This document shows positions 32,951 to 49,345 of a stretch of DNA of 64,000 bases, piece after piece. The DNA comes from Coriobacteriia bacterium. GTDB lineage: Bacteria > Actinomycetota > Coriobacteriia > Anaerosomatales > PHET01. The notes under the pieces were generated by a model, which made no database searches, had not been told where the DNA came from, and saw only the letters and a list, made by a program, of their open reading frames with translations. The stretch is taken from positions 165,103 to 229,102 of the forward strand of contig JAXMKZ010000011.1 in NCBI GenBank assembly GCA_034370385.1, given 5' to 3'. The position numbers and the translations under genes are program-made. The stretch's first letter is position 1, and each line of letters begins with the position of its first letter.

Positions 32951-34168
32951 ATGACGTTTGAAGAACTCGGTCTATCAGACGAGATACTCGCGGCGGTGGC
33001 CGCGCTCGGCTACGTAGAGCCAACCCCAATTCAAGAACAAGCCATCCCCCTGGTCCTAGCGGGCCGGGACGTCGTTGGCGCGGCGCAAACCGGCACCGGC
33101 AAGACGGCCGCCTTCACCCTGCCGCTGCTCCAGTGCATCGGCGTCGGGCGGGGCGCACCCCTCGCGCTCGTCGTGACTCCCACCCGCGAACTCGCGGCGC
33201 AGATCGATGGCGTCGCGGCGGCGGTATCCGAGCACACGGGGCAGCGCATCGCCGCCATCGTCGGCGGTGTGGGCTACGGCCCGCAGCTCAAGCGGGTCAA
33301 AGACGGCGCCGACGTGTTGGTTGCCACACCCGGGCGCCTCATCGACCTGGTCGATCGCGGAGACGTCGATCTTTCCAAGGTCGAGATCCTCGTGCTGGAT
33401 GAAGCCGACCGCATGCTCGACATGGGCTTCTGGCCGAGCGTGAGACGCATCCTGAGCTTCCTGCCGGCCAAGCGACAGAACCTGCTGTTCTCGGCGACCA
33501 TCTCGCCGGAGATAACCCAGATCGTGGGCCGTATGCTCCACGAGCCGGCGTTCATCGAGATCGCGCGCAAGGGCACCACCGCCGAAGGCATCGAGCAGGC
33601 GATCATGCCCGTAGAGCAGTCACAAAAACCCGAGCTCCTTGCCGCGCTCATCGAGTCGCGCGGCGCGGACCGCGTCTTGGTGTTCACCAAGACGAAGGCA
33701 CGCGCGGACCTCGTTCGCACGATTCTGGACCGCCTGGGCCTGAATGTGGCGGTCATGCACGCGGATCGCACGCAGCAGCAGCGCGACTCTGCGCTCGCCC
33801 GATTCTCGGAGGGCAAGGTGGACGTGCTCGTGGCCACCGACATAATCGCCCGGGGCATCGACGTCTCGGAGATAGACCACGTCGTCAACTATGACGTGCC
33901 GGAGAACCCCGAGGACTACGTCCATCGCATCGGCCGAACCGGCCGCGCGGGAGCGAGTGGATACGCGCTCACGCTTGTGGGCCCCGACGAGATCACGCAG
34001 CTGCGCGAGATCGAGTACATGCTCGGCAAGATCCTGCCGTCGAAAGACGTGGAGGGTTTTCCGTACCGCGAAGGGCGCATCATCCCGTTCGAGGGGCGCC
34101 CTGCGAAGAAGCCGACGCGTGCCGCCTTCGGCGCGAAGGCCCGCTCGAGCAGGATCGGCCGCCGGTAG
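32951..34168 (+). CDS. DEAD-box ATP-dependent RNA helicase
   Basis: AQTGTGKT, PTRELA, VLDEAD, SAT and HRIGRTGRAG motifs. Confidence 0.9.
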   Translation: MTFEELGLSDEILAAVAALGYVEPTPIQEQAIPLVLAGRDVVGAAQTGTGKTAAFTLPLLQCIGVGRGAPLALVVTPTRELAAQIDGVAAAVSEHTGQRIAAIVGGVGYGPQLKRVKDGADVLVATPGRLIDLVDRGDVDLSKVEILVLDEADRMLDMGFWPSVRRILSFLPAKRQNLLFSATISPEITQIVGRMLHEPAFIEIARKGTTAEGIEQAIMPVEQSQKPELLAALIESRGADRVLVFTKTKARADLVRTILDRLGLNVAVMHADRTQQQRDSALARFSEGKVDVLVATDIIARGIDVSEIDHVVNYDVPENPEDYVHRIGRTGRAGASGYALTLVGPDEITQLREIEYMLGKILPSKDVEGFPYREGRIIPFEGRPAKKPTRAAFGAKARSSRIGRR

Positions 34169-34181
34169 AGCCTCACAGGTC

Positions 34182-36356: not shown

Positions 36357-37502
36357 CTACTTCACCGTCACCGTGCGCGGAGACGAAACGGTCGCGGCAT
36401 GAAGCGTGTCGGTCGGCACGGACGCCCGCAGTTGGAACGTCCCCTTAGGGAGTTTCAGTGAAGCACTCCACCCCGTCGACGAGTGCCGTGCCGGCACAGC
36501 GCGATAGACGCGCCACCCGGAACCAGACTTGCGAGCGACGAGCACACGGACATGCCCGGAGCCCCGGCTGTGTGCGGGCTTGAGCGCACCGCTCACCGTG
36601 AATGCCTTTCCGAACGTCGCACGCGACGGCGCCTTCGGCGCGGGCAGGTATGCGCGCGGCCACACGGTCATGACGGGGCCGATTCCGTAACCGACCGCAC
36701 TGCCGTCCTGCGTCACGCTCCATGTGCTCTGAATGCGGTAGTCGGTCCGCTTAGCCGGCTTGGCCTGCAACGTGAATGAGCCGTCGGCGGCGGTCTTGGT
36801 CGAGGCGACCCTGGTCCATGTGGTGGAGCCGTACGGTCGCTGCCTGATCTGGACCGCGAACCCGACCATCGGACGACCGGCGACAAGGGCGGTGCCGGTG
36901 GCTGACGCGCTGCCGCCGAACCGGACGATCACCGGAGCCGTGGACATGATGTCGGGCGTCGGCAGCTGAGTCCGGCGCCACACCAACGTGTAGGGACCGG
37001 ATCCATCGAACTGCTGCGCAACGTGTACGTAGAACGTGGCCGTCGACGATCGATCGGAGACGTAGGAGATGCGCTCAACCGCCCCGGTCGCCCCCTCGGA
37101 AGCGCGCAGGATCGGTGTGAACGGCCTGGTGAACGCGACGGACAGACGGCGGGTGCCGGGCGCGATGAGATACAGATCGAAATCCGCATCGGGGGGCGGC
37201 GTCATCGTCGCCTCAAAACGCTCGTTGTAGGCCAGCCGGAACTGGTACACGTCGTCGATGTCCCACAGTGGCACATTGCCCGGGCCGACCGCGGTGGTCT
37301 CGGTGAGGGAGTCACGCACCGTCCCCCCCGAGCCCTGTAGCGCGACTCCGGGGATGTCATCGTCAGCCGCGCGCGCGAACGCCGCGCCGACGCTCAACAC
37401 GATGAACACGATAGCAAGCACGACAACGCGGCTTGTGAAAACGCCTCTTCGCCTCATCAAAACGCAGCCTTCCTCAACGGGGACCGATCGCACGAGCGAC
37501 AT
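36357..37502 (-). CDS. Secreted PPC (pre-peptidase C-terminal)-like domain protein carrying the shared C-terminal modules
   Basis: TM/signal at the N-terminus, DVYQFRL...DFDLYLI PPC-like core, and a C-terminus AFTVSGALKPAH...LHAATVSSPRTVTVK. Its stop abuts the protease start. Confidence 0.6.
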   Translation of the reverse strand: MSLVRSVPVEEGCVLMRRRGVFTSRVVVLAIVFIVLSVGAAFARAADDDIPGVALQGSGGTVRDSLTETTAVGPGNVPLWDIDDVYQFRLAYNERFEATMTPPPDADFDLYLIAPGTRRLSVAFTRPFTPILRASEGATGAVERISYVSDRSSTATFYVHVAQQFDGSGPYTLVWRRTQLPTPDIMSTAPVIVRFGGSASATGTALVAGRPMVGFAVQIRQRPYGSTTWTRVASTKTAADGSFTLQAKPAKRTDYRIQSTWSVTQDGSAVGYGIGPVMTVWPRAYLPAPKAPSRATFGKAFTVSGALKPAHSRGSGHVRVLVARKSGSGWRVYRAVPARHSSTGWSASLKLPKGTFQLRASVPTDTLHAATVSSPRTVTVK

Positions 37503-37523
37503 TCGAGTCGCCCCTTGCCAACG

Positions 37524-37997
37524 CTACTGGGTCAGCAGCACCGGCGCGCCAATACCAAGCGTCACTGAAGCAGAAACCGGTCCTCCGGATTCGCCCTCAG
37601 TCACTGTGACGCTCGATTCGGCGTTTCCCTTACGGAACATCAGGACGGTCTTGCGGCCCGTAGAATCCTGGGCTTCTTCGCCTACCTGCTCCCATTGCCG
37701 CCCTAGGTAGGCAGCGCGGTACCACTGGACAAGATCCTCGAACCCGTTAGGCACTTCCACGACGTAATCCCACGCGTCGTCTCCCTGTGCTTGTGCGCGC
37801 GTGAAGTCTCCCACGGGAACGGGCACCTCGGCCGGGAAGCTCGTCGCTATCGTCGCGCGCTTCGCAGACGGCGTCATCGGCTCGATTGCCAACGGTGCGG
37901 ACGAGCCCGCCGGAACCGGGTTCTCAGGGACACATGCGACGCCAACCGCGCACAGCAGCGCCAGAGCCGCGACGGCTGCGTACCTCAGAAGCCTCAT
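37524..37997 (-). CDS. Putative lipoprotein of unknown function
   Basis: MRLLRYAAVAALALLCAVGVAC signal with a lipobox-like VGVAC. ATGA overlap with the upstream DUF1622 gene. Confidence 0.55.
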   Translation of the reverse strand: MRLLRYAAVAALALLCAVGVACVPENPVPAGSSAPLAIEPMTPSAKRATIATSFPAEVPVPVGDFTRAQAQGDDAWDYVVEVPNGFEDLVQWYRAAYLGRQWEQVGEEAQDSTGRKTVLMFRKGNAESSVTVTEGESGGPVSASVTLGIGAPVLLTQ

Positions 37998-38368
37998 GGT
38001 TTCTCCTCGCACCTACGCTCCGCTGCCGCACGTTGCCACGGCCAACGGCCCTCGATCTCGACCTCAAGCGACCACGAGAGGAAGGTCCGAATGATGACGA
38101 GCGCACCGAGGACGGCCAGGTTCTCAAGTGTGGGCTCCACGGCGATCGTGCGAATCAGGTCGGCAGCGACGAGAATCTCCAGCCCCAGGAGCACGCTGCG
38201 CCCGAAGGTAGCGCGGAATGCTTCGTAGGGCGTGATCGCCGATCCGCGGACACGGTACGCTCGCACGAGTGCGTAGAAGAAGCCCGCGAGGATCACGAGC
38301 ACTCCCGTGACCTCAAACAAGACGGATACCTGCGACATCACTGCCTGTACTTGATCATGCATGCGCAC
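37994..38368 (-). CDS. DUF1622-like small membrane protein
   Basis: LLGLEILVAADLIRTIAVEPTLENL...IIRTFLSWSLEVE is typical of DUF1622. Confidence 0.65.
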   Translation of the reverse strand: MRMHDQVQAVMSQVSVLFEVTGVLVILAGFFYALVRAYRVRGSAITPYEAFRATFGRSVLLGLEILVAADLIRTIAVEPTLENLAVLGALVIIRTFLSWSLEVEIEGRWPWQRAAAERRCEEKP

Positions 38369-38522
38369 CAGTCTACCCCCACAAGGCCGTCAAGCCCCGC
38401 AGTGGGCTCATCGAAGGCAACTGACAGGACCGTCTGGAGCGCTTACCGCCCGAGCACGTGACGGCAGCAGCCGGCACAGGAGCAACCTCTCGGTCGTCCA
38501 ACTCCTCGGAACGAGGCTTCGC

Positions 38523-38933
38523 TCAGTTCTGCGCGTGGCGGACGAAGGTCATCTGCTCGCCGGCCATATCCTTCAGGACCTGAATCCTCGCGAGCGGGTC
38601 CAGTGCGGCCAGTTCGTCGCGCATCCGGCCCTCGGCGGCCAAGATGCGTGAACCCCTCTGGTGCACTGCGCTCCGGCTCACGATGACAAGCCCGAGGGCG
38701 ACAAGCGCAAGAGGCGCCAGCAGTGAGGTCAGTCCCTTGTGTCCTCGAATCACCTGAGTCATGCCCCACGCCACCCCCCCGCTCACAAGGGTCAATCCGG
38801 CCGCCATGGTCACGGCGTCTCCGTCCACTCGATCGCCGAACTCCTCGCGAATCTCATTGGCGCGGGCAAGGAGCGCCTCGCGTCGGGCGAACAGATCATC
38901 TCGTGCTGTCATGATGTCCTCACGCGAGACCAT
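38523..38933 (-). CDS. Hypothetical 2-TM membrane protein
   Basis: High GC3. GGAGG lies 8 nt upstream of ATG 38933. I recognise no family. Confidence 0.5.
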   Translation of the reverse strand: MVSREDIMTARDDLFARREALLARANEIREEFGDRVDGDAVTMAAGLTLVSGGVAWGMTQVIRGHKGLTSLLAPLALVALGLVIVSRSAVHQRGSRILAAEGRMRDELAALDPLARIQVLKDMAGEQMTFVRHAQN

Positions 38934-39054
38934 CACGATCACCTCCAAAGGTTGAGTCCTCCACTGAAGTTCATCCCCCGCCCCAAACCGCACGACTCAC
39001 CCACGTGGATGCGGGCGCTATGCTGTGTGCAGTCACCGAGATTCGGAGCTGCGC

Positions 39055-39285
39055 ATGCCCGACGACGACCCACTCACTCCTGAGCACCATCGCGTACCCG
39101 GTGCCGACATCCTTCGGGAGGACACGTGGGGCGAGAAGCCCGATCAGTGTCCGGGGTGCGGCCAGCCGATCTCCGGCGGACAGGCCCAGTGCCGCACGTG
39201 CGGCCAGTGGCTCGAAACCTGCGCGCGCTCGTGCTCGAGTTGCGCCTCGCCGCGCTGCGTCGGAGGGCTCCGAAGCGAGCGCTGA
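39055..39285 (+). CDS. Small Cys-rich (zinc-ribbon-like) hypothetical protein
   Basis: CPGC...CRTC followed by C..SC.SC..PRC. The codon third-position GC bias is consistent with coding. The start is uncertain (39025 or 39055). Confidence 0.4.
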   Translation: MPDDDPLTPEHHRVPGADILREDTWGEKPDQCPGCGQPISGGQAQCRTCGQWLETCARSCSSCASPRCVGGLRSER

Positions 39286-39289
39286 GCAC

Positions 39290-40099
39290 CTAGCTGCGCT
39301 CAGTCGCCAAGTCGCTCGCGATGAGTGCTCCGAGCATCAGCAGGGCGTGCCCGATGCCCCAGCCGTAGTCGATGACCGAACCCGAGGAGTACAGGTCGTA
39401 CGTCGACAGCCACGAGTATGCGACGTCCGTGATCGCGATGACGACCGTGCCAGCAGCGACCGCCCTCCAGGGCCAGACCAGTCGACCTCCCCCAAGCGAG
39501 GCCATCACCGAAAGTACGAAGACCGCAGGCGCGATCATGAGCAGCACGTCGCCCAGCGGATAGAGCGAAGAGAACAGCATCTCTGCGGTGGACACGCCCG
39601 GCTCGTTCAGGACGAACGGCTTGAGCAGGGCGAAGTACACGATCGCTGCGAGCCCCCCGCCGGTAACGATCGCGATGGTGGCCGGGCGCCGCAGGGGCAC
39701 GAGGCCGCGGAATGCCAGGCCGGCGGTCAGAAGACCCCACGCCACAAACGGATACTCAAGCAGGTAGAACACATCCGGCCAGCCGGGATAGGGAACTTCT
39801 TGCTGCATTCCGACTTCGATGACGGTCCAGATGAAGTCTCCGACGAAATAGCTGAACGTGCCAAGGCCGATGAGCAACCACGGCTTACCCACGCTTCCCA
39901 GCGGGCCGAGACGCACGGCCGCGCGTAGAATGACGGCAGCAGCCAACCCCACCACGAGCGTCTCATGGATGTCGCTGACTGCGACGATCCCGGCCTCTCC
40001 ACCCACCTTCAGCGTCACCAAGATCGCTGCCAGCGCGATGAACGCGATGGTCGACCCGAACAGCACCCACGTGCTTCGGGAGATGATCCGTTGGCTCAT
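39290..40099 (-). CDS. Hypothetical polytopic (about 8 TM) membrane protein
   Basis: Hydrophobic segments throughout. The start is set at ATG 40099 (MSQRIISRS...), which overlaps the stop of the upstream small ORF (ATGA). Confidence 0.6.
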   Translation of the reverse strand: MSQRIISRSTWVLFGSTIAFIALAAILVTLKVGGEAGIVAVSDIHETLVVGLAAAVILRAAVRLGPLGSVGKPWLLIGLGTFSYFVGDFIWTVIEVGMQQEVPYPGWPDVFYLLEYPFVAWGLLTAGLAFRGLVPLRRPATIAIVTGGGLAAIVYFALLKPFVLNEPGVSTAEMLFSSLYPLGDVLLMIAPAVFVLSVMASLGGGRLVWPWRAVAAGTVVIAITDVAYSWLSTYDLYSSGSVIDYGWGIGHALLMLGALIASDLATERS

Positions 40100-40338
40100 C
40101 TCACACCGCCATCCCAGCGGCTGCTTCTGAGCGCCCCGATCGCGTCTTCGATGGCGGCCAATGGGGCCACCGGTTCCAGAAGTCGGCGGATGTTCACCTC
40201 GAGTTCGGGTAGATCCTGCGCGCACAGATCGTCAGAGGTCTTGCCCAGTTTGAGCGCGGTTGCGCGCACGCATGTGTCCGCGACCGTGCACCCAACGTGG
40301 GGCTCAAGCGCGGCCCGGACCTCATCAGCAATTCCCAT
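40096..40338 (-). CDS. Small hypothetical cytoplasmic protein (80 aa)
   Basis: MGIADEVRAALEPHVG... Translationally coupled to the membrane protein and located 46 nt downstream of ppk1. Confidence 0.45.
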   Translation of the reverse strand: MGIADEVRAALEPHVGCTVADTCVRATALKLGKTSDDLCAQDLPELEVNIRRLLEPVAPLAAIEDAIGALRSSRWDGGVR

Positions 40339-40384
40339 CTGTCCCCCCCGGAACCTGGATTCACCCTGATCACCCGCCGCTAGT

Positions 40385-42523
40385 CTACCGCCTCGCAGCA
40401 CCATCCGCTAACCTGCGCTCGGCAACCGACAGGAAGGCGACCTGCGCGTCAACGGGCGCCTCGCCATCGTTCGGCTGACGGAGTGCGTAGGTACCGTCGG
40501 CAGCCAGCTCCCTCGTGTGAGCGTTGTCGGCCAGATAGACGTCAAGAATCGACTTCAGCCGGCGAACGAGCGCGCGGTCGATGATCGGTGCCAGCACCTC
40601 GACCCGACGGTCCATGTTGCGAGTCATGAGGTCCCCGCTCCCGATGAGCACCTCCGGTCTGCCGTTGTTGCGGAACCAGTAGATCCTAGTGTGCTCGAGG
40701 AATCGGCTGACGAGGCTCGTGACCGTGATGTTCTCCGAGACACCCTCGACCCCGGGCTTGAGGGTGCACACCCCCCGCACGAGCAGGTCGATTCTGACAC
40801 CCGCCTGAGAGGCCTCGTAGAGCAGCGGAACCATGCGCCGGTCAACGAGCGAGTTCATCTTGAAGATGATGTGCGCCGGCTTCCCCGCAGCGGCGTTGGC
40901 CATCTCGCGACGGATCCTGCTCTCCATTCCGCTACGCAGTGTGTTCGGCGCAACGAGGAACCGCTCGAACTGTGTATCGGCGGCCCACCCGGTGAGCGAA
41001 TTGAAGAGCTGAGTAGCGTCGTGCCCGACATCCTCGCGGCAGGTGAGCAGGTCCAGATCCGTGTATTGCGAAGAGGTGACCGCGTTGTAGTTGCCGGTTC
41101 CCACGTGCACGTAGCGCCTGATCCGCCGCCCCTCTTTGCGCACGATGAGCGTGACCTTGCTGTGCGTCTTGAGTCCGAGGAGCCCGTACACGACGTGCAC
41201 GCCCGCAGCCTCGAGCATTCTCGCCCATCCGATGTTGCTCTCCTCATCGAAGCGCGCCTTGAGTTCGACGAGCGCTGCGACCTCCTTGCCGTTCTCGGCC
41301 GCCTCGAGAAGCGCCTGCACGACCGGCGCGTCGCGCCCCACCCGATACAGCGTCATCTTTATGGCCAGAACATCGGGGTCGTTGGCGGCCTGGCGCAGCA
41401 AGGCCACGACAGGCTCGAACGATTCAAACGGTCGATGGAGCATTATGTCGTGCTCGCGGATCGCTTCGAACCAGTCGGTGGTCGCGGCCTCGTCGCACCC
41501 TGGCGGAAGGGCGGGCACGAAGGGCTTCTCCTTGAGATCAGGCCGATCGACACGGTAGAGCGCGAAGAGGTCTGAGAATCCGAGCGGCGGGTCGACGACC
41601 ACCATCTCATCCGGTTCGAGTTCGAGGTTCTCGGACAGAATCTGGCGGACGGGCTCAGGCATGTCCTCGTCGACGGTCACTCGGACTACGCTACCGAAAC
41701 GTCGTTTCCGAATGCCTTCTTCGATACTCTCGAGCAGATCGTCCGCCTCAATCTCCTGGATCTCGATCTCGGCGTCACGCGTGATTCGAAACGCGTGCGC
41801 TTCAACGACTTCGTAGCCCGGGAAGAGCGAAGCCAGATGTGTGCAGACGAGATCGTCGATCCAGATGAACCAGTGTCCGTGAGCCCGCCCGGGGCGGCCG
41901 CCCTGCCGGCCCGGCATGGGCACAAGTCGAGGCAAGGACCTGGGAAGCTTGAGGCGCGCAAAGCGTTCTTCACCCTCGGGTGAACGCACGACGATGGCCA
42001 GGTTCAGAGACATGTTCGAGATGTGCGGGAACGGTCGGCCGGGATCGAACGCAAGCGGCGTGAGCGTGGGGAACGCGGTGTCGCGAAAGTACTCGTCGGC
42101 AGCACCTCGCTGAACCGCGTCTAGGTCGCGGTAGCCGACGACGTGGATGTTCTGTGCAGCGAGCTCAGTCCGCAGTGAGCGGTACAGCACACGCCCCCGC
42201 CGCATGAGCTCTACCGCGCGCTCACGTGACGCCGCCAGTTGTTCGGCCGGAGTCATGCCGTCAGCCGAAGTACCGCCTACGCCCGCCTTGACCTGCTGCT
42301 TCAGCCCCCCGATGCGCACCATGTAGAACTCGCCGAGGTTGCTCGACATGATCGCGAGGAACTTGACCCTCTCCAGCAAGGGGTTGCGCTCGTCCTCGGC
42401 TTCCTCGAGTACGCGCTCTTGGAAGGCGAGCAGCGACAACTCGCGATTCAGGAACAGTGACGGGTCATCAAGTCGAACCGCCTCAGGCTCAGGCAGGCCG
42501 CTCTCAGGGCTGTCTATCTTCAT
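40385..42523 (-). CDS. ppk: Polyphosphate kinase 1
   Basis: 712 aa. LNRELSLLAFQERVLEEA N-terminus, the autophosphorylated His region (THSK) and two PLD-like C-terminal domains. Confidence 0.95.
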   Translation of the reverse strand: MKIDSPESGLPEPEAVRLDDPSLFLNRELSLLAFQERVLEEAEDERNPLLERVKFLAIMSSNLGEFYMVRIGGLKQQVKAGVGGTSADGMTPAEQLAASRERAVELMRRGRVLYRSLRTELAAQNIHVVGYRDLDAVQRGAADEYFRDTAFPTLTPLAFDPGRPFPHISNMSLNLAIVVRSPEGEERFARLKLPRSLPRLVPMPGRQGGRPGRAHGHWFIWIDDLVCTHLASLFPGYEVVEAHAFRITRDAEIEIQEIEADDLLESIEEGIRKRRFGSVVRVTVDEDMPEPVRQILSENLELEPDEMVVVDPPLGFSDLFALYRVDRPDLKEKPFVPALPPGCDEAATTDWFEAIREHDIMLHRPFESFEPVVALLRQAANDPDVLAIKMTLYRVGRDAPVVQALLEAAENGKEVAALVELKARFDEESNIGWARMLEAAGVHVVYGLLGLKTHSKVTLIVRKEGRRIRRYVHVGTGNYNAVTSSQYTDLDLLTCREDVGHDATQLFNSLTGWAADTQFERFLVAPNTLRSGMESRIRREMANAAAGKPAHIIFKMNSLVDRRMVPLLYEASQAGVRIDLLVRGVCTLKPGVEGVSENITVTSLVSRFLEHTRIYWFRNNGRPEVLIGSGDLMTRNMDRRVEVLAPIIDRALVRRLKSILDVYLADNAHTRELAADGTYALRQPNDGEAPVDAQVAFLSVAERRLADGAARR

Positions 42524-42641
42524 TGGCTCCCCGCAGGTCCGGCAACCGAACAGGCCCCTCGCATGGTACTCACTTTCGGCAGCTCAGGCACGATTTCACA
42601 TACCTGACACGAGTGCGCCCGCAAGAACCACGCTCAACGTG

Positions 42642-42672
42642 TTGACTCTCACGTAACGTGAGGGTCTAGGCT
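42642..42672 (+). promoter_or_regulatory. MerR/TipA-type promoter: -35 TTGACT, 19-bp spacer containing a perfect dyad, -10 TAGGCT
   Basis: TTGACT-CTCACGTAACGTGAG-GGTC-TAGGCT. The dyad CTCACGT-A-ACGTGAG spans 42648..42662. GGAGGTG and ATG 42696 lie downstream. Confidence 0.6.
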
Positions 42673-42695
42673 GATGCACCGGAGGTGAGTGCGAC

Positions 42696-43351
42696 ATGAC
42701 GCACACGGTAGGACAGGTGGCCAGGCTCGCGCACGTCAGCGTGAGGACGCTCCACCACTACGACGAGATTGGACTGCTCAAGCCTTCGGCGCGCAGCGAT
42801 GCGGGCTATCGGCTGTATACGTTGCACTGCTCCGGCAACGGGACCTCATCGCCGAGCAGGCACTTCGGCTGGAGGCGCTGCTCGCACTCATCGACCGATC
42901 GATAGCAGCAAACGAAGGAGGTATCCGCATGACGAATGAAGAGATGTTCGAGGTGTTCGGCGACTTCGACCCGTCCGAGTACGAGGACGAGACCAGAGAG
43001 CGCTGGGGCGACACGGACGCGTATCGCGAGTCCGCGCGCCGCACCGGGCGCTACACCAAGGATGACTGGGCACGCTTCAAGGCCGAGGGCGAGCATCAGA
43101 TGGCGAGGATGATCGAGCTGTTCGACGCCGGCGCTTCGCCCGACTCGCCCGAGGCGATGGACGCCGCCGAGGCCGCCCGACTGCAGATCGACGCGTGGTT
43201 CTACCCGTGTTCGCGTGAGATGCACTGCGGCCTGGCAGAGATGTACATCGCCGACGCACGCCTTACGGCGCACTACGAAGACCACCGGCAGGGACTCGCG
43301 GTCTGGTTCCACGATGCGATTCTTGCCAACGCGGTACGCGGCGAGGAGTAG
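42696..43351 (+). pseudogene. TipAL-like MerR-family regulator disrupted by an internal deletion and frameshift
   Basis: The HTH (MTHTVGQVARLAHVSVRTLHHYDEIGLLKPSARSDAGYRLY) is in the frame of 42696. The coiled-coil and TipAS part (LLRQRDLIAEQALRLE...FEVFGDFDP...) is in the frame of 42689. The span is 656 nt, not a multiple of 3, and the expected DLxRLQQILFxRELGF segment is missing. Confidence 0.65.
42929..43351 (+). CDS. Stand-alone TipAS-like antibiotic-recognition domain, if translated from the internal start
   Basis: GAAGGAGG lies 7 nt upstream of ATG 42929. The product reads MTNEEMFEVFGDFDPSEYEDETRERWGDTDAYRES... The 140-aa frame is intact. Confidence 0.5.
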   Translation: MTNEEMFEVFGDFDPSEYEDETRERWGDTDAYRESARRTGRYTKDDWARFKAEGEHQMARMIELFDAGASPDSPEAMDAAEAARLQIDAWFYPCSREMHCGLAEMYIADARLTAHYEDHRQGLAVWFHDAILANAVRGEE

Positions 43352-43414
43352 AATGCGACGCACAAGAGGCGAGTGGCTTCAGGCCCGCCGCAACTGCAAC
43401 TGCCAGGAGGTCCG

Positions 43415-44434
43415 ATGCGTCACACGATCCGCATCCTGCTATCTCTAGCTTTCGCCTGCGGGGCGATGGTAGGCAGCGTCGGGACGGCGAGCGCCGAACC
43501 CGTCCGTGCCTCGGCCGGCTACACGATCTCCGGCAGTGTGTATGCCGTGCCCCCGGTCAGGCCGCTCGACGAGGTCGAGGTGGCCCTCTACCAGTCGAAC
43601 GGCGCGGGAGGGTGGAGTCGCGTGAACTGGACGGTGCCGCTCAACGGCGAGTACCAGTTCAACGACGTCCCAGCGGGCGAGTATCGGGTCGGGGTCGAAC
43701 GGCCCGCAAACGCATCCAGCCCGCTGTGGCGCTATCCCCTGCCACTCTTCTGGAGCAACTACGCCTCGACGGTCGAATCGGCCACGACACTCCGTGTCGT
43801 CGGCGATGTGCAGCTCTCGTCCGTGGCGGCCTTCGAGAACTCGCGCGTCTCGGGCACGCTCCGGTCAGAGGTGAACGGCGCTCCCCTGTCTGGTGCGGCC
43901 GTGACACTGTACTGGTTCGCGGGCGCTGAAGCGCCTCGCACCGACACCGTGCTCACGGATCGGTTCGGCGAGTACTCCATCTACGTACCGAGGGGTGATG
44001 CGAACTCGTTCAGCCTGCGGTTCGCCAAGCCGGGCTACGTCACGGAGTTCTACGACGACCGGACCCGCCTCGAAGATACCGAACGACGAAGCGCCGACAC
44101 ATGGGAAGGACTGGGCGGTTGGTTGCGCGCGCGCATCACGGGCGCTGTCGCACCCTCGGTGCGCACGGTGCGCGGACGCGGCACGGTGCGAGTCACGACG
44201 ACCTTGCGTGACGGTCCCACCGGTGCGCCGAAGCCCAACGCGCAGTTCCGTCTCCAGCGCTCGTACAACAACCGCACGTGGAGCAACATCGGAGGCGTGC
44301 TGAAGACCGGTAGCACCGGACGGCATGTCGCGTCCACGACGGTGACCCGCACGACGTACTTCCGCTGCGTGCCGTTGTCTTCGTCGAAGTACCTCGGCGT
44401 GACCTCGTCTTCGGTGAAGGTGAGCAAGCTGTAG
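43415..44434 (+). CDS. Secreted protein with CarboxypepD_reg-like beta-sandwich repeats (paralog A)
   Basis: Signal MRHTIRILLSLAFACGAMVGSVGTASA. Repeats of the type YTISGSV...G.YQFNDVPAGEYRVGVE. C-terminal FRLQRSYNNRTW...RTTYFR module. Confidence 0.7.
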   Translation: MRHTIRILLSLAFACGAMVGSVGTASAEPVRASAGYTISGSVYAVPPVRPLDEVEVALYQSNGAGGWSRVNWTVPLNGEYQFNDVPAGEYRVGVERPANASSPLWRYPLPLFWSNYASTVESATTLRVVGDVQLSSVAAFENSRVSGTLRSEVNGAPLSGAAVTLYWFAGAEAPRTDTVLTDRFGEYSIYVPRGDANSFSLRFAKPGYVTEFYDDRTRLEDTERRSADTWEGLGGWLRARITGAVAPSVRTVRGRGTVRVTTTLRDGPTGAPKPNAQFRLQRSYNNRTWSNIGGVLKTGSTGRHVASTTVTRTTYFRCVPLSSSKYLGVTSSSVKVSKL

Positions 44435-44493
44435 AGAGAGCGGCCCGAGTCGCTCGTGGCCGGCTGCCTATCCACCGCGAACGGGGAGGAACG

Positions 44494-45867
44494 ATGCGCC
44501 GCACACTCAACGTACTACTGGCCCTCGCTGTGGCAACAGGGGTGATCATCGGCGCCGGGCTCTGTGCGACAGAGCCTGCGAACGCCACCACCGCCCCGCT
44601 GCTCGGTGGAGTGTGGGACGCAAGCGACAACCCGATCGATGACGTTCAGGTCGTGCTCTACCGCTACAATCCGGCCAGCGCCACCGACTGGGCCGTCGTG
44701 ACCTTCGTCGAACCCATGGGCGGCACCTTCGACTTTGGCGAAGTACCCACGGGGACCTACCGGGTCGGCATCAGGCCCCATCCTGACGCACCCGCCTCGG
44801 AACAATGGAAGTATTCGCCGATGTTCTGGGAGGATGCGTACTCCCTCGAATACGCCACAGATATCGACCTCGTCGATGGCGAGGCTGTCAATCTCCGCCT
44901 CAGGGTCAACCCCCAGCTCACGGGAACGCTGACTTCTGAGCAGAGCGGCCTGCCCATTGAAGGCGTGACCGTGCGCGTCTACTGGTACGAGGACGCGACG
45001 GACCTGACGGTCGAGACGGCGAGCACGACGACCGACGCGCAAGGGCGCTACGCCATCAGCGTGCCGGACACCGGCACGATACTGATCGAGTTCGCGGGCA
45101 ACGGGTGGGCTATGGAGTACTACCCGAACAAGGCTCGGTTCAACGAAGCCGAGCCCCGGACCTCAGGCGGCATGGTCATCGACGAGTCGCTCAGCCCGGG
45201 AGCGACGTTTCGCGTGGACCGGGCGCTCAGTCCCTTTGGTACCAGGATGCCCTCTGCCTGGACGGCGATCGAGGCGGGACTGCCGTATGGCATCGAACTC
45301 GAACGGCGCTTGGATCTGCCTGCAGCTGACCCTGCCCAGTGGGAGCCGTTCTGGATCATGCCGGCTCGAACCCGCTCTCAGTGGCCGGACTTTCTCCCGT
45401 ATGGGCAGTATCGCGTGCGCTTCGTCGCGCCCACCGGAACCTACCGCTCAGCGTGGCACGCGCACGTGGCCACACCGGAAGCAGCTACGCCGATGACCGC
45501 GGATCCCTCGGCCCGCAACATGGTTGCCGACGCCCGCTTCCTCGGCCGCACCAAGGCTTCAACGAGCATCCGTTCGTCGGTTGCGAGTGTGCGGCGCAAT
45601 GGGCGTGCGCGCCTCACCGTGACGATTCGTGACGCGTCAATCACCGGACGCACACCGTTCGCTCTGCCCAGCGCGCCGTTCCGTCTGCAGAGGTCGTATG
45701 ACGGACGAAGGTGGACGACGATCGGCGGCGTTCGCCGCACGGGCAGCGCCGGGACGTACGCGACGAGCCTCGGAATCTCCCGCACCACCTACTTCCGAGC
45801 CGTGCCCGCGGCCACGCCGACGTACTACGGGGCGACCTCATCTCGCGTTCGCGTGCGAGTCCGCTGA
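44494..45867 (+). CDS. Secreted protein with CarboxypepD_reg-like repeats (divergent relative)
   Basis: Signal MRRTLNVLLALAVATGVIIGAGLCA. GTFDFGEVPTGTYRVGI-type repeats. C-terminal FRLQRSYDGRRW...RTTYFRAVP module. Confidence 0.7.
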   Translation: MRRTLNVLLALAVATGVIIGAGLCATEPANATTAPLLGGVWDASDNPIDDVQVVLYRYNPASATDWAVVTFVEPMGGTFDFGEVPTGTYRVGIRPHPDAPASEQWKYSPMFWEDAYSLEYATDIDLVDGEAVNLRLRVNPQLTGTLTSEQSGLPIEGVTVRVYWYEDATDLTVETASTTTDAQGRYAISVPDTGTILIEFAGNGWAMEYYPNKARFNEAEPRTSGGMVIDESLSPGATFRVDRALSPFGTRMPSAWTAIEAGLPYGIELERRLDLPAADPAQWEPFWIMPARTRSQWPDFLPYGQYRVRFVAPTGTYRSAWHAHVATPEAATPMTADPSARNMVADARFLGRTKASTSIRSSVASVRRNGRARLTVTIRDASITGRTPFALPSAPFRLQRSYDGRRWTTIGGVRRTGSAGTYATSLGISRTTYFRAVPAATPTYYGATSSRVRVRVR

Positions 45868-46042
45868 GACGAGAGCCTCGTCCGAAGTGAAGATGCCGTT
45901 CGCCGACACGGTGTCCCGGTCGGCCCGCTGTAGTCTTGTGTAAGGGTCCATCCGCAGTAGCGTCGTCGGAAGGAGTAGCGTGCCACGGGTCTGGACGAGT
46001 ACCCTGATGCGCGCCCAGCCGTTCACGCCCACAGGAGGTCCG

Positions 46043-47065
46043 ATGCGCCACACGATCCGAATCCTGCTCACACTGACGCTCGGCTTCGGAGCGCTGGTAG
46101 GAGCCGTCGGGACCGCGAGCGCCGAACCCGTTCGTGCCTCAGCCGGCTACACGATCTCAGGCAGCGTGTACGCCATGCCCCCGATCAGGCCGCTCAACGA
46201 GGTCGCGGTGGCCCTTCACCAGTCGAACGGTGCGGGCGGGTGGAATCGCATCCGCTCGACAGTGCCGTCCGGCGGTGCGTTCCAGTTCAACGACGTCCCC
46301 GCAGGCGACTATCGGGTCGGTTTCGAGCCACTGGCGAACGCGTCGAGCCCGCTGTGGCGCTATCCCCTCCCGGTCTTCTGGAACAACTACGCCTCAACCG
46401 TCGAATCGGCCACATCGGTTCGAGTCGTCGGCGACACGGAGCTCGCACCCATCGCGATCTTTGAGAACTCGCGCGTCTCGGGCACACTCCAGTCTGCAGT
46501 GGACGGCGCCCCTCTGAAGGATGCGGCAGTGACGTTGTACTGGTTCTCGGGAGCCGGGGCGTATCGCACCGATACCGTGCTCACGGATCGGTTCGGCGAG
46601 TACTCGATCTACGTGCCCAGAGGGGATGAGAACTCATTCAGTCTGCGATTCGCCAAGTCGGGCTACGTCACGGAGTTCTACGACGACCGGACTCGCCTCG
46701 AGGACACCCAACGCCGAAGCGCCGACTCGTGGGAAGGGCTCGGCGGCTGGCTACGCGCACGCATCACCGCCTCTGTGACGCCCTCGGTGCGCACGGTGCG
46801 CGGACGCGGTGCGGTGCGATTCACGACGGTTCTTCGTGATGGTCGTTCTACGAGTGGCGCGATGGCTCGCACCGGCTTCCGGCTTCAGCGCTCGTACAAC
46901 AATCGCACGTGGACGAACGTAGGTGGCGAACTCAAGACCGGCATCACCGGCCGCTACACCTCGTCCATCTTGGTCACCCGTACGACCTTCTTCCGAGCCT
47001 TGCCGACCTCATCGTCCAAGTTCTACGGCGTCCCTTCGCCGTCGGTGAAGATCACGAAGAGGTAG
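46043..47065 (+). CDS. Secreted protein with CarboxypepD_reg-like repeats (paralog A')
   Basis: About 80% aa identity by eye to the 43415..44434 product over its full length. The SD/start context is identical (CAGGAGGTCCGATGCG). Confidence 0.7.
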   Translation: MRHTIRILLTLTLGFGALVGAVGTASAEPVRASAGYTISGSVYAMPPIRPLNEVAVALHQSNGAGGWNRIRSTVPSGGAFQFNDVPAGDYRVGFEPLANASSPLWRYPLPVFWNNYASTVESATSVRVVGDTELAPIAIFENSRVSGTLQSAVDGAPLKDAAVTLYWFSGAGAYRTDTVLTDRFGEYSIYVPRGDENSFSLRFAKSGYVTEFYDDRTRLEDTQRRSADSWEGLGGWLRARITASVTPSVRTVRGRGAVRFTTVLRDGRSTSGAMARTGFRLQRSYNNRTWTNVGGELKTGITGRYTSSILVTRTTFFRALPTSSSKFYGVPSPSVKITKR

Positions 47066-47094
47066 CCGTCGAGAGCACTGGCTCCGAACGTTTC

Positions 47095-47126
47095 CGAGGC
47101 CCGACCACGTGGATGTGGTCGGGCCT
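47095..47126. terminator. Hairpin between convergent genes (possible bidirectional terminator)
   Basis: GAGGCCCGACCAC-GTGGAT-GTGGTCGGGCCTC forms a perfect 13-bp stem. There is no clear U-tract. Confidence 0.45.
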
Positions 47127-47151
47127 CGTTACGCTCAGCATCAGGTCTCGG

Positions 47152-47967
47152 CTACTCGCCCAGTTCGATCGAGACCTCACCGATACCCTGCTTCACCCGA
47201 ATCTCGTAGGCCGGACGGTCGTCGTCGTATGCATCGTTGACCCAGGCGCCGCCATCCTCTGACAGGCCGTCGACGGTCACCTCTCCGATGCCCTGGTCGA
47301 TTGTGACCCGAACGGGCACTCCGTTCGGAAGCGCCAACCGCATCGCCCCGACGCCGCCGATGACATCGATCTCGACGTCGTCATCCAGTTCACGCCCGCC
47401 TGTGAGGTCGATCGTCGTCTCACCCGCGCCGTTGACGATTCGTGCCGACAACAGCAGGAGGTCTCCGATGAGGAGATCTGCCTCGCCCGCGCCACGCTCG
47501 ATCACGAGATCCATCGGCGTGCCGGTATCGAGAGCGACGTCCCAGTTGTTGCGCGTGTCTCCCTCGGCGAACGGGTCGAACTCGGACTGCCTGACGGTCA
47601 GCTCGCCGACCTCGCCGTCCACTCGGTAGTCCACCTCGGGCGTCCAGCGCTTGGGCTTGGTGTCGAACTGGGCGTCCATGAGCGGCCCGCTCGCACCGCG
47701 AACCTTCAACTCACCCACGGGCTGTGCCAGTCGCACCTCCGCTCGCGTCGCGGTGCCGAGCTCGACCACCTCGGTGGCAGTGCGACCGACGACCGGCGAG
47801 TCCGGCTCTTCGGGGGCCTGTGGCTCATCGGCCTCGATGCGGTCCCCGATGTGTAGATTCGCGTACCACTCGTCGCCGGTGTTCTCGACGCGACGGAAAC
47901 CGGTCCCCAACGCGATCATGCCGATGAGTACCACCGCGATGATGATCGGTATCGAACGGTCCTTCAT
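47152..47967 (-). CDS. Toast-rack-type (DUF2154/DUF4097-like) protein with an N-terminal TM anchor
   Basis: MKDRSIPIIIAVVLIGMIALG TM segment, then repetitive beta-strand motifs (GAGEADLLIG, GAGETTIDL, GVGAMRLAL, GIGEVTVD, GIGEVSIEL). ATGA overlap with the upstream gene. The ORF-track extension to 48582 is judged spurious. Confidence 0.65.
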   Translation of the reverse strand: MKDRSIPIIIAVVLIGMIALGTGFRRVENTGDEWYANLHIGDRIEADEPQAPEEPDSPVVGRTATEVVELGTATRAEVRLAQPVGELKVRGASGPLMDAQFDTKPKRWTPEVDYRVDGEVGELTVRQSEFDPFAEGDTRNNWDVALDTGTPMDLVIERGAGEADLLIGDLLLLSARIVNGAGETTIDLTGGRELDDDVEIDVIGGVGAMRLALPNGVPVRVTIDQGIGEVTVDGLSEDGGAWVNDAYDDDRPAYEIRVKQGIGEVSIELGE

Positions 47968-48917
47968 GACTGCACCTCCTGACCGGCTACGCCCGCAGCT
48001 GCATCGCTGTCGAAACGCCCCACGAGCATCACCTTGGCGTAGGCGCCGTGGAGCACGCCGACACCCTTCGCCACCCACATGGTGGCCACGAACGTGAGCA
48101 CGCCGATCAGGATCACGAAGGGCGCGGCCCACCAGTTCATCTGATAGTGGTAGTCGCCGAACACGAACAGCGGCAGATCGAAGATCCACTGGGCGAACGG
48201 CAGCGCGATGAACGACAGCGCAAGCGACAGCCCCGTCACCACGACCGTGAAGTAGATGATGCCGAACATGAGCTGCAGCACCATGTAGAGCATCGTCGTC
48301 CACGTGCGGTAGTCGGTGAACCAGCTCTTGATGCGCTCCCACAGGTTGCCTGTCTGACCGACGGTGCGCGGACGCCGTGGCATGCGCAGACCGAGCAGCC
48401 CCTCGACCATTCGTCCTTCGGCCAGTGAAACCGCCCGGACGATGGCGATGAACAGCAGCGCCAACGGGATGCCAACGATCAGTACCGACAGACCGAAGGT
48501 GAGCGACAGCCCCGTCACCACGACCGTGAAGTACATGATGCCCGTCACCAACGCCAGAAGCATGTAGAACAGCGCGCCCCACGCTCCGGGATCGGCCAGT
48601 ACGCCGAAGAATCGGCCGAGTATCGTGGAGCGACGCTGCGGCGCCGGCTTGCGGAGCGCCTCTGCCACCGTGATCTCACGCTCGCGATACGCGTCGGCGA
48701 TCTCTTCCGGAGTCCCGTATGCATCGATCGCCGTGGCGATGGACTCGGGAGTCGTCCCGTCCTCGGCCGCAGCCGAACGCAGGTACTCCTCCGCATCGTA
48801 GAGCGCATCTTGCACAAGCGCGGGATCCGCCCCGGCGAGTGCGCCCCTCAGTTGGGCCAGATAGCCCTCGATTGTCTCAGCCAACGTTACCCTCCAACGT
48901 CGCATCGACGAAGTCAC
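47964..48917 (-). CDS. HAAS/DUF1700-like N-terminal domain fused to a duplicated 'putative sensor' membrane domain
   Basis: IEGYLAQLRGAL...YGTPEEIADAYRE (DUF1700-like), followed by two repeats of LFYMLLALVTGIMYFTVVVTGLSL / MLYMVLQLMFGIIYFTVVVTGLSL. The start is uncertain (48917 or GTG 48890). Confidence 0.6.
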   Translation of the reverse strand: MTSSMRRWRVTLAETIEGYLAQLRGALAGADPALVQDALYDAEEYLRSAAAEDGTTPESIATAIDAYGTPEEIADAYREREITVAEALRKPAPQRRSTILGRFFGVLADPGAWGALFYMLLALVTGIMYFTVVVTGLSLTFGLSVLIVGIPLALLFIAIVRAVSLAEGRMVEGLLGLRMPRRPRTVGQTGNLWERIKSWFTDYRTWTTMLYMVLQLMFGIIYFTVVVTGLSLALSFIALPFAQWIFDLPLFVFGDYHYQMNWWAAPFVILIGVLTFVATMWVAKGVGVLHGAYAKVMLVGRFDSDAAAGVAGQEVQS

Positions 48918-49242
48918 GTGTCCGTGACCACGCCGCCTTCCAGTCGTCTAGCACCGCACTCCCGCGCTCGGTGATCGCGTAGTACTTCCGCGGTGGGCCC
49001 GAGACACTCGGCTCCACCCGGCTCTCAAGCAGTCCGTTCTCCTCCATCATGCGCAGAACCGGGTACAACGTTCCCTGCTTCACCGGCAGTCCGCCGGCCC
49101 ACCCGGACTCGATGCGCTTCGCGATCTGGTAGCCGTACAGCGGCTCAGAAGAGCGGTCCAGAATCGCTAGGAGAACGAGTGAGACGGTGCCTGCGTTGAG
49201 CTCCTTCTGGATCTTTCGAAGCATGGCTTCGTCCGCGGTCAC
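48877..49242 (-). CDS. PadR-family transcriptional regulator
   Basis: LLAILDRSSEPLYGYQI...GTLYPVLRMMEENGLL winged helix. Confidence 0.9.
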   Translation of the reverse strand: MTADEAMLRKIQKELNAGTVSLVLLAILDRSSEPLYGYQIAKRIESGWAGGLPVKQGTLYPVLRMMEENGLLESRVEPSVSGPPRKYYAITERGSAVLDDWKAAWSRTRDFVDATLEGNVG

Positions 49243-49299
49243 TGCCCACCTCCCTCACGTGTCGTCCAGCGGTTGTATCAACTCGCTGGTATTCGGAAC

Positions 49300-49345
49300 T
49301 TCGGACTAGTCACGATGCATACTACTACTAAGTTCCGACTAGTCA
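49300..49345. promoter_or_regulatory. Candidate PadR operator: two copies of TTC(G/C)GACTAGTCA, 33 bp apart, in an AT-rich divergent intergenic region
   Basis: The palindromic core GACTAGTC occurs at 49304..49311 and 49337..49344, flanked by the inverted GAACTT/AAGTTC. Confidence 0.4.

Follow-up and report, generated by a model that had tools for sequence, protein, structure and literature searches.

A probable recent 106 bp deletion splits a TipA-class MerR-family gene in a Coriobacteriia bacterium

Promoter, operator and reading frames of the locus

The locus lies on the forward strand at 42642–43351 of the window (the whole 64 000-nucleotide stretch of DNA that was analysed). Its divergent neighbour is ppk, a polyphosphate kinase gene of 712 aa (40385..42523, − strand) that was taken from the open reading frames and used as the synteny anchor; the copy of this gene in L001, which is identical, carries PP_kinase Pfam domains. 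A promoter of the MerR type (42642..42672, + strand; TTGACT-19-TAGGCT) opens the locus, with all of its parts where the first-pass annotation had placed them. Direct reading of the sequence gave a −35 element TTGACT at 42642–42647 and a −10 element TAGGCT at 42667–42672 (both + strand), separated by the 19 nt spacer CTCACGTAACGTGAGGGTC at 42648–42666 (+ strand). The presumed TipAL site is the operator dyad CTCACGT-A-ACGTGAG (42648..42662, no strand assigned), a perfect 7-1-7 inverted repeat (CTCACGTAACGTGAG), which the inverted-repeat finder lengthened to 11 nt arms with 10/11 complementary positions (repeat I3). Scanning of the 64 kb window returned one exact copy of CTCACGTAACGTGAG and no second operator dyad. 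A standard sigma-70 scan with spacers of 16–18 nt called no promoter at 42642..42672, as expected. The same −35/dyad/−10 layout was present in 102 of 131 homologue loci, with a spacer of 19 bp in 102/102 of these; CTCACGTAACGTGAGGGTC was the most frequent spacer variant, and operator and promoter together represent the commonest variant of the family. The locus thus has an own promoter of MerR design, with a 19 bp spacer and an inverted-repeat operator, as TipAL-type regulators do.

The TipAL start, ATG 42696, is preceded at a distance of 8 nt by a Shine–Dalgarno sequence GGAGGTG (42681..42687, + strand), which is kept in L002, L003 and L063. The reading frame that begins here (42696..42905, + strand; assigned from the ORF list and Pfam MerR) is a stub of 69 aa with a translation starting MTHTVGQVARLAHVSVRTLHHYDEIGLLKPSARSDAGYRLY. 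It consists of 41 native codons, which cover the MerR HTH and wing through GYRLY, followed by Thr42, 27 out-of-frame residues and a TAG stop at 42903–42905, and its alignment to the Pfam MerR profile covers positions 1–38 of 38 (E = 3e-17). The frame is interrupted at a deletion junction (42819..42828, + strand) located between 42823 and 42824 (±2 nt), where TATACGTT is joined to GCACTGCTCC. Downstream of the junction, 35 codons of the coiled-coil helix α5 remain (42824..42928, + strand; ALLRQRDLIAEQALRLEALLALIDRSIAANEGGIR); they are in the TipAS frame and are severed from the TipAL start. The span 42696–43351 measures 656 nt and is indivisible by 3, as had been claimed. A TipAL-type regulator has a complete winged-helix DNA-binding domain (α1–α4) that is linked by α5 to the effector in one polypeptide, and its long and short starts share a frame. 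At this locus only α1, α2 and wing 1 (41 residues) are in frame, α5 is reduced to 35 codons in the other frame, and the two starts, each with its Shine–Dalgarno sequence, are present in different frames.

The internal Shine–Dalgarno sequence GAAGGAGG (42914..42921, + strand) was confirmed to lie 7 nt upstream of ATG 42929, so that the TipAS part has the own translation start (GAAGGAGG-N7-ATG) expected of a stand-alone TipAS. The ORF that follows (42929..43351, + strand; stop at 43349–43351) encodes 140 aa and a complete ligand-binding domain, in agreement with the intact TipAS part that had been described; a complete effector domain of this kind is common to the TipAL-type and the stand-alone TipAS classes. 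It matches PF07739 over positions 1–117 of 117 (E = 1.7e-36) and the solved structures 2mbz and 1ny9 (E = 1e-42), and is identical to P0014, the NCBI entry 'MAG: TipAS antibiotic-recognition domain-containing protein [Coriobacteriia bacterium]'. At the conserved TipAS columns (≥95%, n = 25) a single deviation, F112L, was observed, which is inside the normal range. Among homologues with the E-G-G motif (n = 20), the rare codons GAA and GGA were used in 18/20, compared with gene-wide backgrounds of 18% and 13%, and this preference suggests that the clade conserves the internal Shine–Dalgarno site as a nucleotide sequence. Its start had been equated with that of the short form in Streptomyces; an internal Shine–Dalgarno sequence and start are indeed present, but the ATG is placed four codons downstream of the S. 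lividans TipAS start.

Binding of a thiopeptide in particular, which had also been suggested, is unsupported because the position of the reactive cysteine is not conserved. The window has Gly at the position aligned with Cys214, which we take to be the reactive cysteine of S. lividans TipA, and has Cys one residue earlier (MHCG versus MHTC in S. lividans); the reactive cysteine for covalent thiopeptide capture is accordingly missing from its place. Close orthologues read MHAAL in this region, with Cys at neither position. No intrinsic terminator was found after TipAS, and the lone Rfam match to structured RNA in the region (E = 0.92) was far below the gathering score.

Intact orthologues and the deletion junction

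The ortholog P0002 in L002 (GCA_029265315.1, contig JAJUJM010000003.1) is intact, encodes 256 aa and adjoins ppk in the same divergent arrangement, and the flanks of the two loci are collinear over the stretch between the DEAD helicase and purL. P0002 and a second ortholog, P0001 (Logan SRR19759709), are single ORFs of 256–257 aa, whereas the window gene is split by the loss of 106 nt; identity is 82% over the aligned residues, and the window agrees with them in its promoter layout and in the internal GAAGGAGG-N7-ATG. In the window the leader is 12 nt shorter, the start codon is ATG instead of GTG, and an extra gene block of ~6 kb lies directly downstream.

Alignment of the DNA with the intact loci L002 and L003 showed one gap only, exactly 106 nt long (35 codons plus 1 nt), and the two tblastn HSPs switch frame at 42824. 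Sized in this way against a syntenic intact ortholog, the lesion bears out the deleted and frameshifted DNA-binding half described in the first-pass annotation and agrees with its estimate of 35–40 missing residues. The missing segment corresponds to residues 46–81 of P0002, that is α3 (47–61), α4 (66–74) and the first turn of α5, as mapped on an AF2 model of P0002 (mean pLDDT 87). Reconstitution of TipAL by programmed frameshifting or bypass was rejected because 35 codons are physically missing from the DNA. Repeats or microhomology were also considered as the deletion mechanism, and no convincing direct repeat was found at the junction: the CGCTCG repeat in L002 predicts a loss of 111 nt where 106 is observed, and a 10/11 match (TTGGACTGCTC and TTGCACTGCTC) is positioned outside the deleted segment.

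At the species level 79/80 homologue loci were intact, single-frame and ~250 aa in length, and among the 72 metagenome homologue loci that do not run off a contig, 66 were intact as well. The possibility that a short in-frame architecture is normal, which the earlier annotation had allowed for, was therefore rejected, the two halves of the window gene being in different frames and the homologues overwhelmingly undivided. Other metagenomic homologues carry damage that is probably technical: L168 and L174, both from 'contig_' assemblies, have single-base frameshifts, and L092 and L159 contain chimeric joins.

An assembly or consensus error had been offered as the alternative, in which the real gene would be intact and the 106 nt gap would stem from the assembly or from a rare subpopulation. 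The source is a metagenome-assembled genome, the exact allele occurs in one sample only, and other homologues (L168, L174, L092 and L159) have probably technical lesions, all of which is in favour of this view. The suggestion is weakened by the Logan assembly of SRR26726069, in which the same junction was found at 99.99% identity over 10,347 nt; this assembly possibly derives from the same sequencing run as the MAG, and the two may share reads, but two different assemblers produced one junction within 10.3 kb of 99.99% identical sequence. The junction is not flanked by any direct repeat as long as an assembler k-mer, so that, from the way such assemblers work, a de Bruijn contig should require junction-spanning reads. 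Moreover, 5.8 billion clustered proteins contained no intact allele above 82% identity, and analogous deletions elsewhere recur across MAGs. No intact allele of the same species was found in public data, where the best intact match had 82% identity and the best match of the metagenome scan 76%. Taken with the evidence on both sides, an artefact or minority variant is considered very improbable.

Age of the lesion and comparable deletions

Relative to L002, ω was 0.04 for the HTH stub (dS 0.88), 0.17 for the coiled-coil remnant and 0.20 for TipAS, with dS of 0.6–0.9 across the three parts. These low values and the perfect operator indicate a recent lesion; judged by substitutions, the lesion is young and its remnants are undecayed. 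The absence of decay fits continued selection on TipAS, promoter and stub equally well. A deletion inherited in common with L063 was rejected, since the intact loci L002, L003 and L085 are nearer to the window in the tree.

Large deletions were found independently in three lineages: one of 106 nt in the window, another of 181 nt in L063/L167 and a third of 130 nt in L170–172. In the last two groups promoter, HTH stub and TipAS follow one another as they do in the window, and the 181 nt and 130 nt alleles each turned up two or three times, in different assemblies or samples. All three deletions start no more than ~7 codons past GYRLY, measure 1 mod 3 and spare the promoter and the TipAS Shine–Dalgarno sequence and ATG, a pattern suggestive of a deletion hot spot or of selection. 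Stand-alone ORFs with PF07739 only, of ~140 aa and with the same internal Met, are frequent and resemble the window TipAS. L169 and L173 differ from the window in that they are TipAS-only genes without an HTH remnant, in unrelated contexts.

These parallels bear on the view that the gene was converted under selection to a stand-alone TipAS. Loss of the DNA-binding half would then be tolerated or favoured and the two-ORF unit maintained; termination of the stub where TipAS begins or slightly upstream would feed ribosomes to the internal Shine–Dalgarno sequence and ATG, and the ligand would be sequestered constitutively at a low level without autoinduction. In all three lineages the deletion left in place the promoter, the start of the stub, and the Shine–Dalgarno sequence and ATG of TipAS, and the common remainder of 1 mod 3 makes the stub frame stop at or before an A-TGA that overlaps the TipAS ATG. 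The recurrence of the 181 nt and 130 nt alleles, the undecayed TipAS of the window and the existence of HTH-free TipAS-only genes (L169, L173) are in its favour, as are the short stand-alone forms of known systems (TipAS; AlbAS), which are functional. The coincidence of frame, however, has p ~0.04 to 0.12 at n = 3, the promoter shows no compensating change and keeps its 19 bp spacer, and in L170 the third codon of the stub is a nonsense codon, which implies that the stub ORF is dispensable. After the deletion, TipAS of L063 and L167 differs by 4.5 nonsynonymous and 1.5 synonymous changes, an ω of ~0.9 based on six changes only, which is compatible with neutral drift.

In the early screens the DNA-binding half had seemed to be lost preferentially and TipAS kept, with all lesions N-terminal; these screens had found homologues through TipAS only, and the idea was dropped after a symmetric search. 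On long contigs, truncations that leave TipAN only, found by searching with the N-terminal domain, were about as numerous as those that leave TipAS only, without a bias towards keeping TipAS. Because homologues broken on the TipAS side are just as numerous, this control lends no support to selection toward a TipAS-only state, and equal frequencies on both sides are what would be expected for unselected decay. Selected conversion is thus regarded as unlikely. Distinctly unlikely, too, is the broader proposition that TipA-class genes repeatedly become two-ORF cassettes through frameshifting deletions of 100–180 bp just past GYRLY, always 1 mod 3, in which a vestigial HTH mini-ORF comes to its end where TipAS begins, or slightly earlier, and is translationally coupled to TipAS, the window being one of at least three instances.

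Loss of the regulator and its consequences

The biology of TipA involves two start codons, autoregulation and a ligand that enhances the binding of TipAL to ptipA (PMC7762955), and the activity of ptipA is minimal without activated TipAL (PMC13316812). The window locus resembles S. lividans tipA in its N-terminal MerR HTH, C-terminal TipAS and internal Shine–Dalgarno sequence and start, and its half-sites CTCACGT/ACGTGAG are identical to those of S. lividans ptipA (TTGCACCTCACGTCACGTGAGGAGGC; PMC7762955), which also has a 19 bp spacer. It belongs to an uncultured Coriobacteriia-type actinomycetote instead of Streptomyces and, unlike tipA, cannot make TipAL, as the 106 nt frameshifting deletion has taken α3–α4. 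The combination of MerR HTH, coiled coil and TipAS-type effector is likewise found in B. subtilis Mta, C. crescentus SkgA and K. oxytoca AlbA, and operators of the Mta/SkgA type have a similar dyad inside a long spacer (PMC7762955), as in the window. AlbA, too, has a short product with ligand binding only, AlbAS. These proteins are functional full-length regulators, whereas the window locus is broken, and similarity to them is much lower (SkgA, E = 7e-22; Lmo0526-type 3qao, E = 5e-23).

The locus is probably a self-activating MerR-family gene of the TipA class in which a real, evolutionarily recent deletion of 106 bp destroyed TipAL. In an undamaged copy, dimers of TipAL would occupy the dyad within the 19 bp-spacer promoter, ligand-bound TipAL would realign the −35 and −10 elements and so switch on its own gene, and the second, internal start would yield the short, ligand-sequestering TipAS. 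The deletion removes α3–α4 and shifts the frame, such that translation from ATG 42696 stops after 69 aa and leaves a fragment without the second wing and the dimerization helix. It has not touched the promoter with its operator, either of the ribosome-binding sites or any part of the TipAS ORF. Ligand-inducible autoactivation would be lost. TipAS should still be translatable from its own conserved Shine–Dalgarno sequence and ATG, possibly helped by ribosomes that end at TAG 42903 just upstream, and would be made at most at a basal level from the unactivated promoter unless a TipAL-like paralogue elsewhere acts on the dyad.

Such induction in trans, by a TipAL- or Mta-type paralogue that recognizes the dyad, would turn the locus into a regulated TipAS-only gene. 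The operator is perfect and of the commonest variant, so that a paralogue would need only a TipAN-type recognition helix to be able to bind it, and the dyads of ptipA, mta and skgA are similar across distant species (PMC7762955). The search for another TipAL-like regulator proposed in the first-pass annotation was nevertheless negative within the 64 kb window, where a six-frame hmmsearch found no other MerR-type DNA-binding domain and no second dyad was seen; induction in trans is considered very improbable.

The destroyed TipAL gene is most likely a case of ordinary recent gene decay, a young pseudogene or loss-of-function allele, with no new system involved. Its importance is limited: it is a minimal drug-response module of the TipA class in uncultured Coriobacteriia that appears to have been caught soon after loss of the regulator. 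In annotation, the 69 aa 'MerR' and 140 aa 'TipAS' ORFs should be treated as the two parts of a single disrupted gene rather than as separate genes. For the family, conservation of the internal Shine–Dalgarno sequence and ATG at the nucleotide level far beyond Streptomyces suggests that the two-product design is general. If recurrent formation of two-ORF cassettes were true, it would uncouple a drug-sequestering protein from autoinduction, and if TipAS-only remnants are expressed and protective, a sensor-regulator gene would have been reduced to a gene for constitutive sequestration.

Promoter, reading frames and internal start

Each element of the MerR-class promoter claimed in the first-pass annotation was recovered on the forward strand when the window was read between 42400 and 43600: a −35 hexamer TTGACT (42642–42647), a 19-nt spacer (42648–42666) enclosing the perfect dyad CTCACGT-A-ACGTGAG (42648–42662), a −10 hexamer TAGGCT (42667–42672), a Shine–Dalgarno sequence GGAGGTG (42681–42687) and the start ATG of the long regulator TipAL at 42696, also present in the ORF listing. 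The dyad occurs once in the whole 64 kb window and its arms grew to 11 nt in a repeat finder. This layout (−35 hexamer, ACGT-N-ACGT dyad inside the spacer, TANNNT as −10 hexamer) was found at 102 of 131 homolog loci; the spacer was 19 bp in all 102 and its commonest variant was that of the window. The half-sites of the dyad are identical to those in ptipA of S. lividans (TTGCACCTCACGTCACGTGAGGAGGC) and similar to the operators of mta and skgA (PMC7762955). A generic σ70 scan (16–18-nt spacers only) returned no promoter at the tipA locus, which is the signature expected of an activator-dependent MerR-type promoter. Judged by these elements, the promoter is canonical and undecayed. The leader (window 42688–42698 versus 9985–10003 in L002, the syntenic intact locus of GCA_029265315.1) lacks 12 nt relative to L002 and to L003, a further intact ortholog; the TipAL ATG aligns with the second GTG of both, whose annotated start adds four residues.

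The ORF from ATG 42696 encodes MTHTVGQVARLAHVSVRTLHHYDEIGLLKPSARSDAGYRLY, which matched Pfam MerR over all 38 profile positions (E = 3e-17), and runs on out of frame past the broken-off HTH to a TAG at 42903–42905, giving a stub of 69 aa in all. The TipAS part, said to be intact in a second frame, is complete there (PF07739, 1–117 of 117, E = 1.7e-36; E = 1e-42 against 2mbz and 1ny9, the solved structures of TipAS from S. lividans). Its 140-aa ORF (42929–43351, forward strand) has its own Shine–Dalgarno sequence GAAGGAGG (42914–42921, forward strand) 7 nt ahead of ATG 42929, and the product is identical to P0014, the NCBI entry 'MAG: TipAS antibiotic-recognition domain-containing protein [Coriobacteriia bacterium]', encoded on a contig of 242,743 bp; the window is accordingly part of a metagenome-assembled genome.

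This ATG had been equated with the start of the short Streptomyces form. An ATG, GTG or TTG occupied the aligned position in 85 of 106 homologs; the others, mostly of the S. lividans-like EARxMGINLTPEE type, have an in-frame ATG (GTG or TTG in a few) four codons upstream, so that the conserved Shine–Dalgarno/ATG arrangement stands but the exact codon differs. At 18 of 20 loci with an E-G-G motif, GAA and GGA were used (gene-wide usage 18% and 13%; binomial p ~1e-12 to 1e-14, a significance inflated by kinship of the loci, the direction being clear), and the purine-rich stretch therefore appears to be kept as nucleotides, beyond its amino acids. Such conservation agrees with the two start codons described for tipA (PMC7762955), a design that the window keeps unchanged.

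Extent and authenticity of the deletion

A DNA alignment with L002 and L003 contained a single gap of exactly 106 columns (35 codons plus 1 nt) between 42823 and 42824, flanked by ...TATACGTT on the left and GCACTGCTCC... on the right, which gives a size to the loss earlier estimated at about 35–40 aa. A tblastn search with P0002, the protein of L002, gave two HSPs with a frame switch at 42824. P0002 (256 aa) and P0001 (257 aa, Logan SRR19759709) were the nearest full-length relatives, with 82% identity over aligned residues. The P0002 gene adjoins a divergent polyphosphate kinase gene, as does tipA in the window, and the flanks are collinear from the DEAD helicase through purL; P0002 is therefore the positional ortholog, and its gene is intact. 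Relative to L002, the window carries ∼6 kb of extra genes straight after tipA (43415–49300), comprising a tandem array of three secreted paralogs that have CarboxypepD_reg domains (43415–44434, 44494–45867 and 45980–47065; two share 82% nucleotide identity) and a LiaF-like/putative-sensor pair on the minus strand.

Helices were mapped on an AlphaFold2 model of P0002 (mean pLDDT 86.8): α1 (residues 9–16), α2 (20–28), a wing strand (43–45), α3 (47–61), α4 (66–74) and the coiled coil α5 (80–112). Residues 46–81 are absent from the window, so that α3, α4 and the first turn of α5 are lost; the second wing would be absent even were the gene in frame, and the frameshift also severs the 41-residue HTH from the dimerization helix. 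The description of a deleted and frameshifted DNA-binding half is thus supported structurally, and from these frames TipAL cannot be made.

An assembly error had been raised as the alternative. The Logan contig L001 (SRR26726069; 10 347 nt), 99.99% identical to window 33629–43975, reproduces the junction and both gene calls (69 and 140 aa), though both assemblies were possibly built from one and the same run; it ends within the tandem CarboxypepD_reg repeat. A repeat search of the junction flanks found nothing of a length that could misdirect a k-mer assembler, from which we infer that reads physically span the junction. In the protein collection, intact alleles reached at most 82% identity, and the best match in a metagenome scan was 76%. 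The artefact explanation is weakened accordingly, and on the sequence evidence the 106-bp deletion is most probably real, whether as a majority or a minority allele.

In comparison with L002, ω was 0.04 for the HTH stub (40 codons, dS 0.88), 0.17 for the coiled-coil remnant (35 codons, dS 0.85) and 0.20 for TipAS (138 codons, dS 0.60). TipAS departs at one of 25 columns conserved at ≥95%, within the usual spread of intact genes; the departure is F112L (window 43262–43264), Phe being present in at least 95% of 151 TipAS sequences. This lack of decay points to a deletion that is young compared with the divergence from the L002 lineage; continued selection on the remnants would account for it as well, and the ω values do not separate the two.

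Other disrupted tipA loci

A shorter in-frame architecture as a normal variant was looked for among homologs and is ruled out, since 79 of 80 species-representative genome loci hold single-frame genes of ∼250 aa; of 80 metagenome loci, 66 were intact, eight were cut by contig ends and six were disrupted in various ways. A homolog in L095 (∼1750–1850) is broken after ...YRELG by a ∼100-nt insertion with terminal inverted repeats (GAGGGTGCGG ... CCGTACCCTC), which looks like a miniature transposable element within the DNA-binding domain. In two metagenome contigs, joins of a TipA homolog at short shared motifs to an isocitrate-dehydrogenase-like C-terminus (L092, ∼1100–1200, ...LQQV/MFFKELGF) and to a Ku-like protein (L159, ∼790–830, ...YDPAQYEDEV) are probably chimeric assemblies rather than genuine fusions, and the lesions in L168 and L174 ('contig_' assemblies) are probably technical.

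A second split tipA was found in MAGs JBBIJX01 (JBBIJX010000036; L063, 2944–3578) and GCA_037441865.1 (L167, 2293–2929), which share a 181-nt deletion allele. The layout of L063 is window-like, with the left edge of the deletion at most 2 nt from the left breakpoint in the window; because the intact L002, L003 and L085 are nearer to the window than L063 is in a neighbour-joining tree, the two deletions are independent. Both MAGs have a TTGACC-19-TACCAT promoter with dyad and a stub of 53–56 aa whose TGA overlaps the TipAS ATG (ATGA). The two copies differ at 6 of 700 nt, and the TipAS changes (4.5 nonsynonymous, 1.5 synonymous, ω ∼0.9), which involve very few sites, are compatible with drift. 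A third, independent case, in an Acidimicrobiia-like lineage (L170, L171 at 1250–1923, and L172, from JGI, ENA and Logan assemblies; nearest intact relative L069), has a 130-nt deletion that starts 6–7 codons further on, after ...GYRQYDEQDLER, with the stub stop overlapping the TipAS ATG. L170 has a nonsense change besides, TAC>TAG in the third stub codon, which shows that the stub ORF is dispensable. Within the clade of the window, an in-frame TAG replaces the second Gln of LQQ in α3 of L165 (100–111; P0041, Logan SRR7903765), whose gene call is therefore a protein of 203 aa that lacks its N-terminal part; Ion_trans_2 lies downstream, as in L002. A TipAS ORF in L169 (2501–2926) is preceded by a META-domain gene instead of an HTH, and L173 (1340–1929) has no HTH either, although a coiled-coil remnant and a promoter with dyad (CTCACGCGACCTGAG), now decayed, are left. 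The two loci may show this decay at a more advanced stage or may be true stand-alone genes.

Each of the three large deletions has a length of 1 mod 3, and the stub frame consequently never runs beyond the A-TGA that overlaps the TipAS ATG. This made it attractive to suppose that selection had repeatedly converted tipA genes into a cassette of stub and translationally coupled TipAS. The first homolog screens were ascertained via TipAS; a symmetric control with the 117-aa N-terminal domain yielded about as many ORFs on long contigs with TipAN only or truncated TipAS as the TipAS search had yielded TipAS-only ORFs. The TipAS half thus shows no sign of being kept in preference to the other; such selection is improbable, and ordinary gene decay is the default reading of the surviving TipAS ORF.

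Consequences for TipAS expression

The sequence points to no particular ligand: where S. lividans TipA has its reactive cysteine there is a Gly (Cys stands one residue earlier), and the closest orthologs have Cys at neither position. Binding of TipAL to ptipA, which ligand enhances, drives transcription (PMC7762955); without activated TipAL, transcription from ptipA is minimal (PMC13316812). The upstream neighbour is divergent, so that there is no read-through into the locus, and a six-frame hmmsearch of the 64 kb found no other MerR-type DNA-binding domain and hence no second TipAL-like regulator encoded there. Termination of the stub 24 nt upstream of the TipAS start, where the Shine–Dalgarno sequence and ATG are intact, may aid reinitiation. 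The first-pass observation is confirmed and its structural reading supported: by its sequence, the locus belongs to the well-known TipA class and carries a probably recent loss-of-function deletion in the DNA-binding domain, from which we infer that inducible autoregulation would be lost and that TipAS synthesis would not exceed a basal level.
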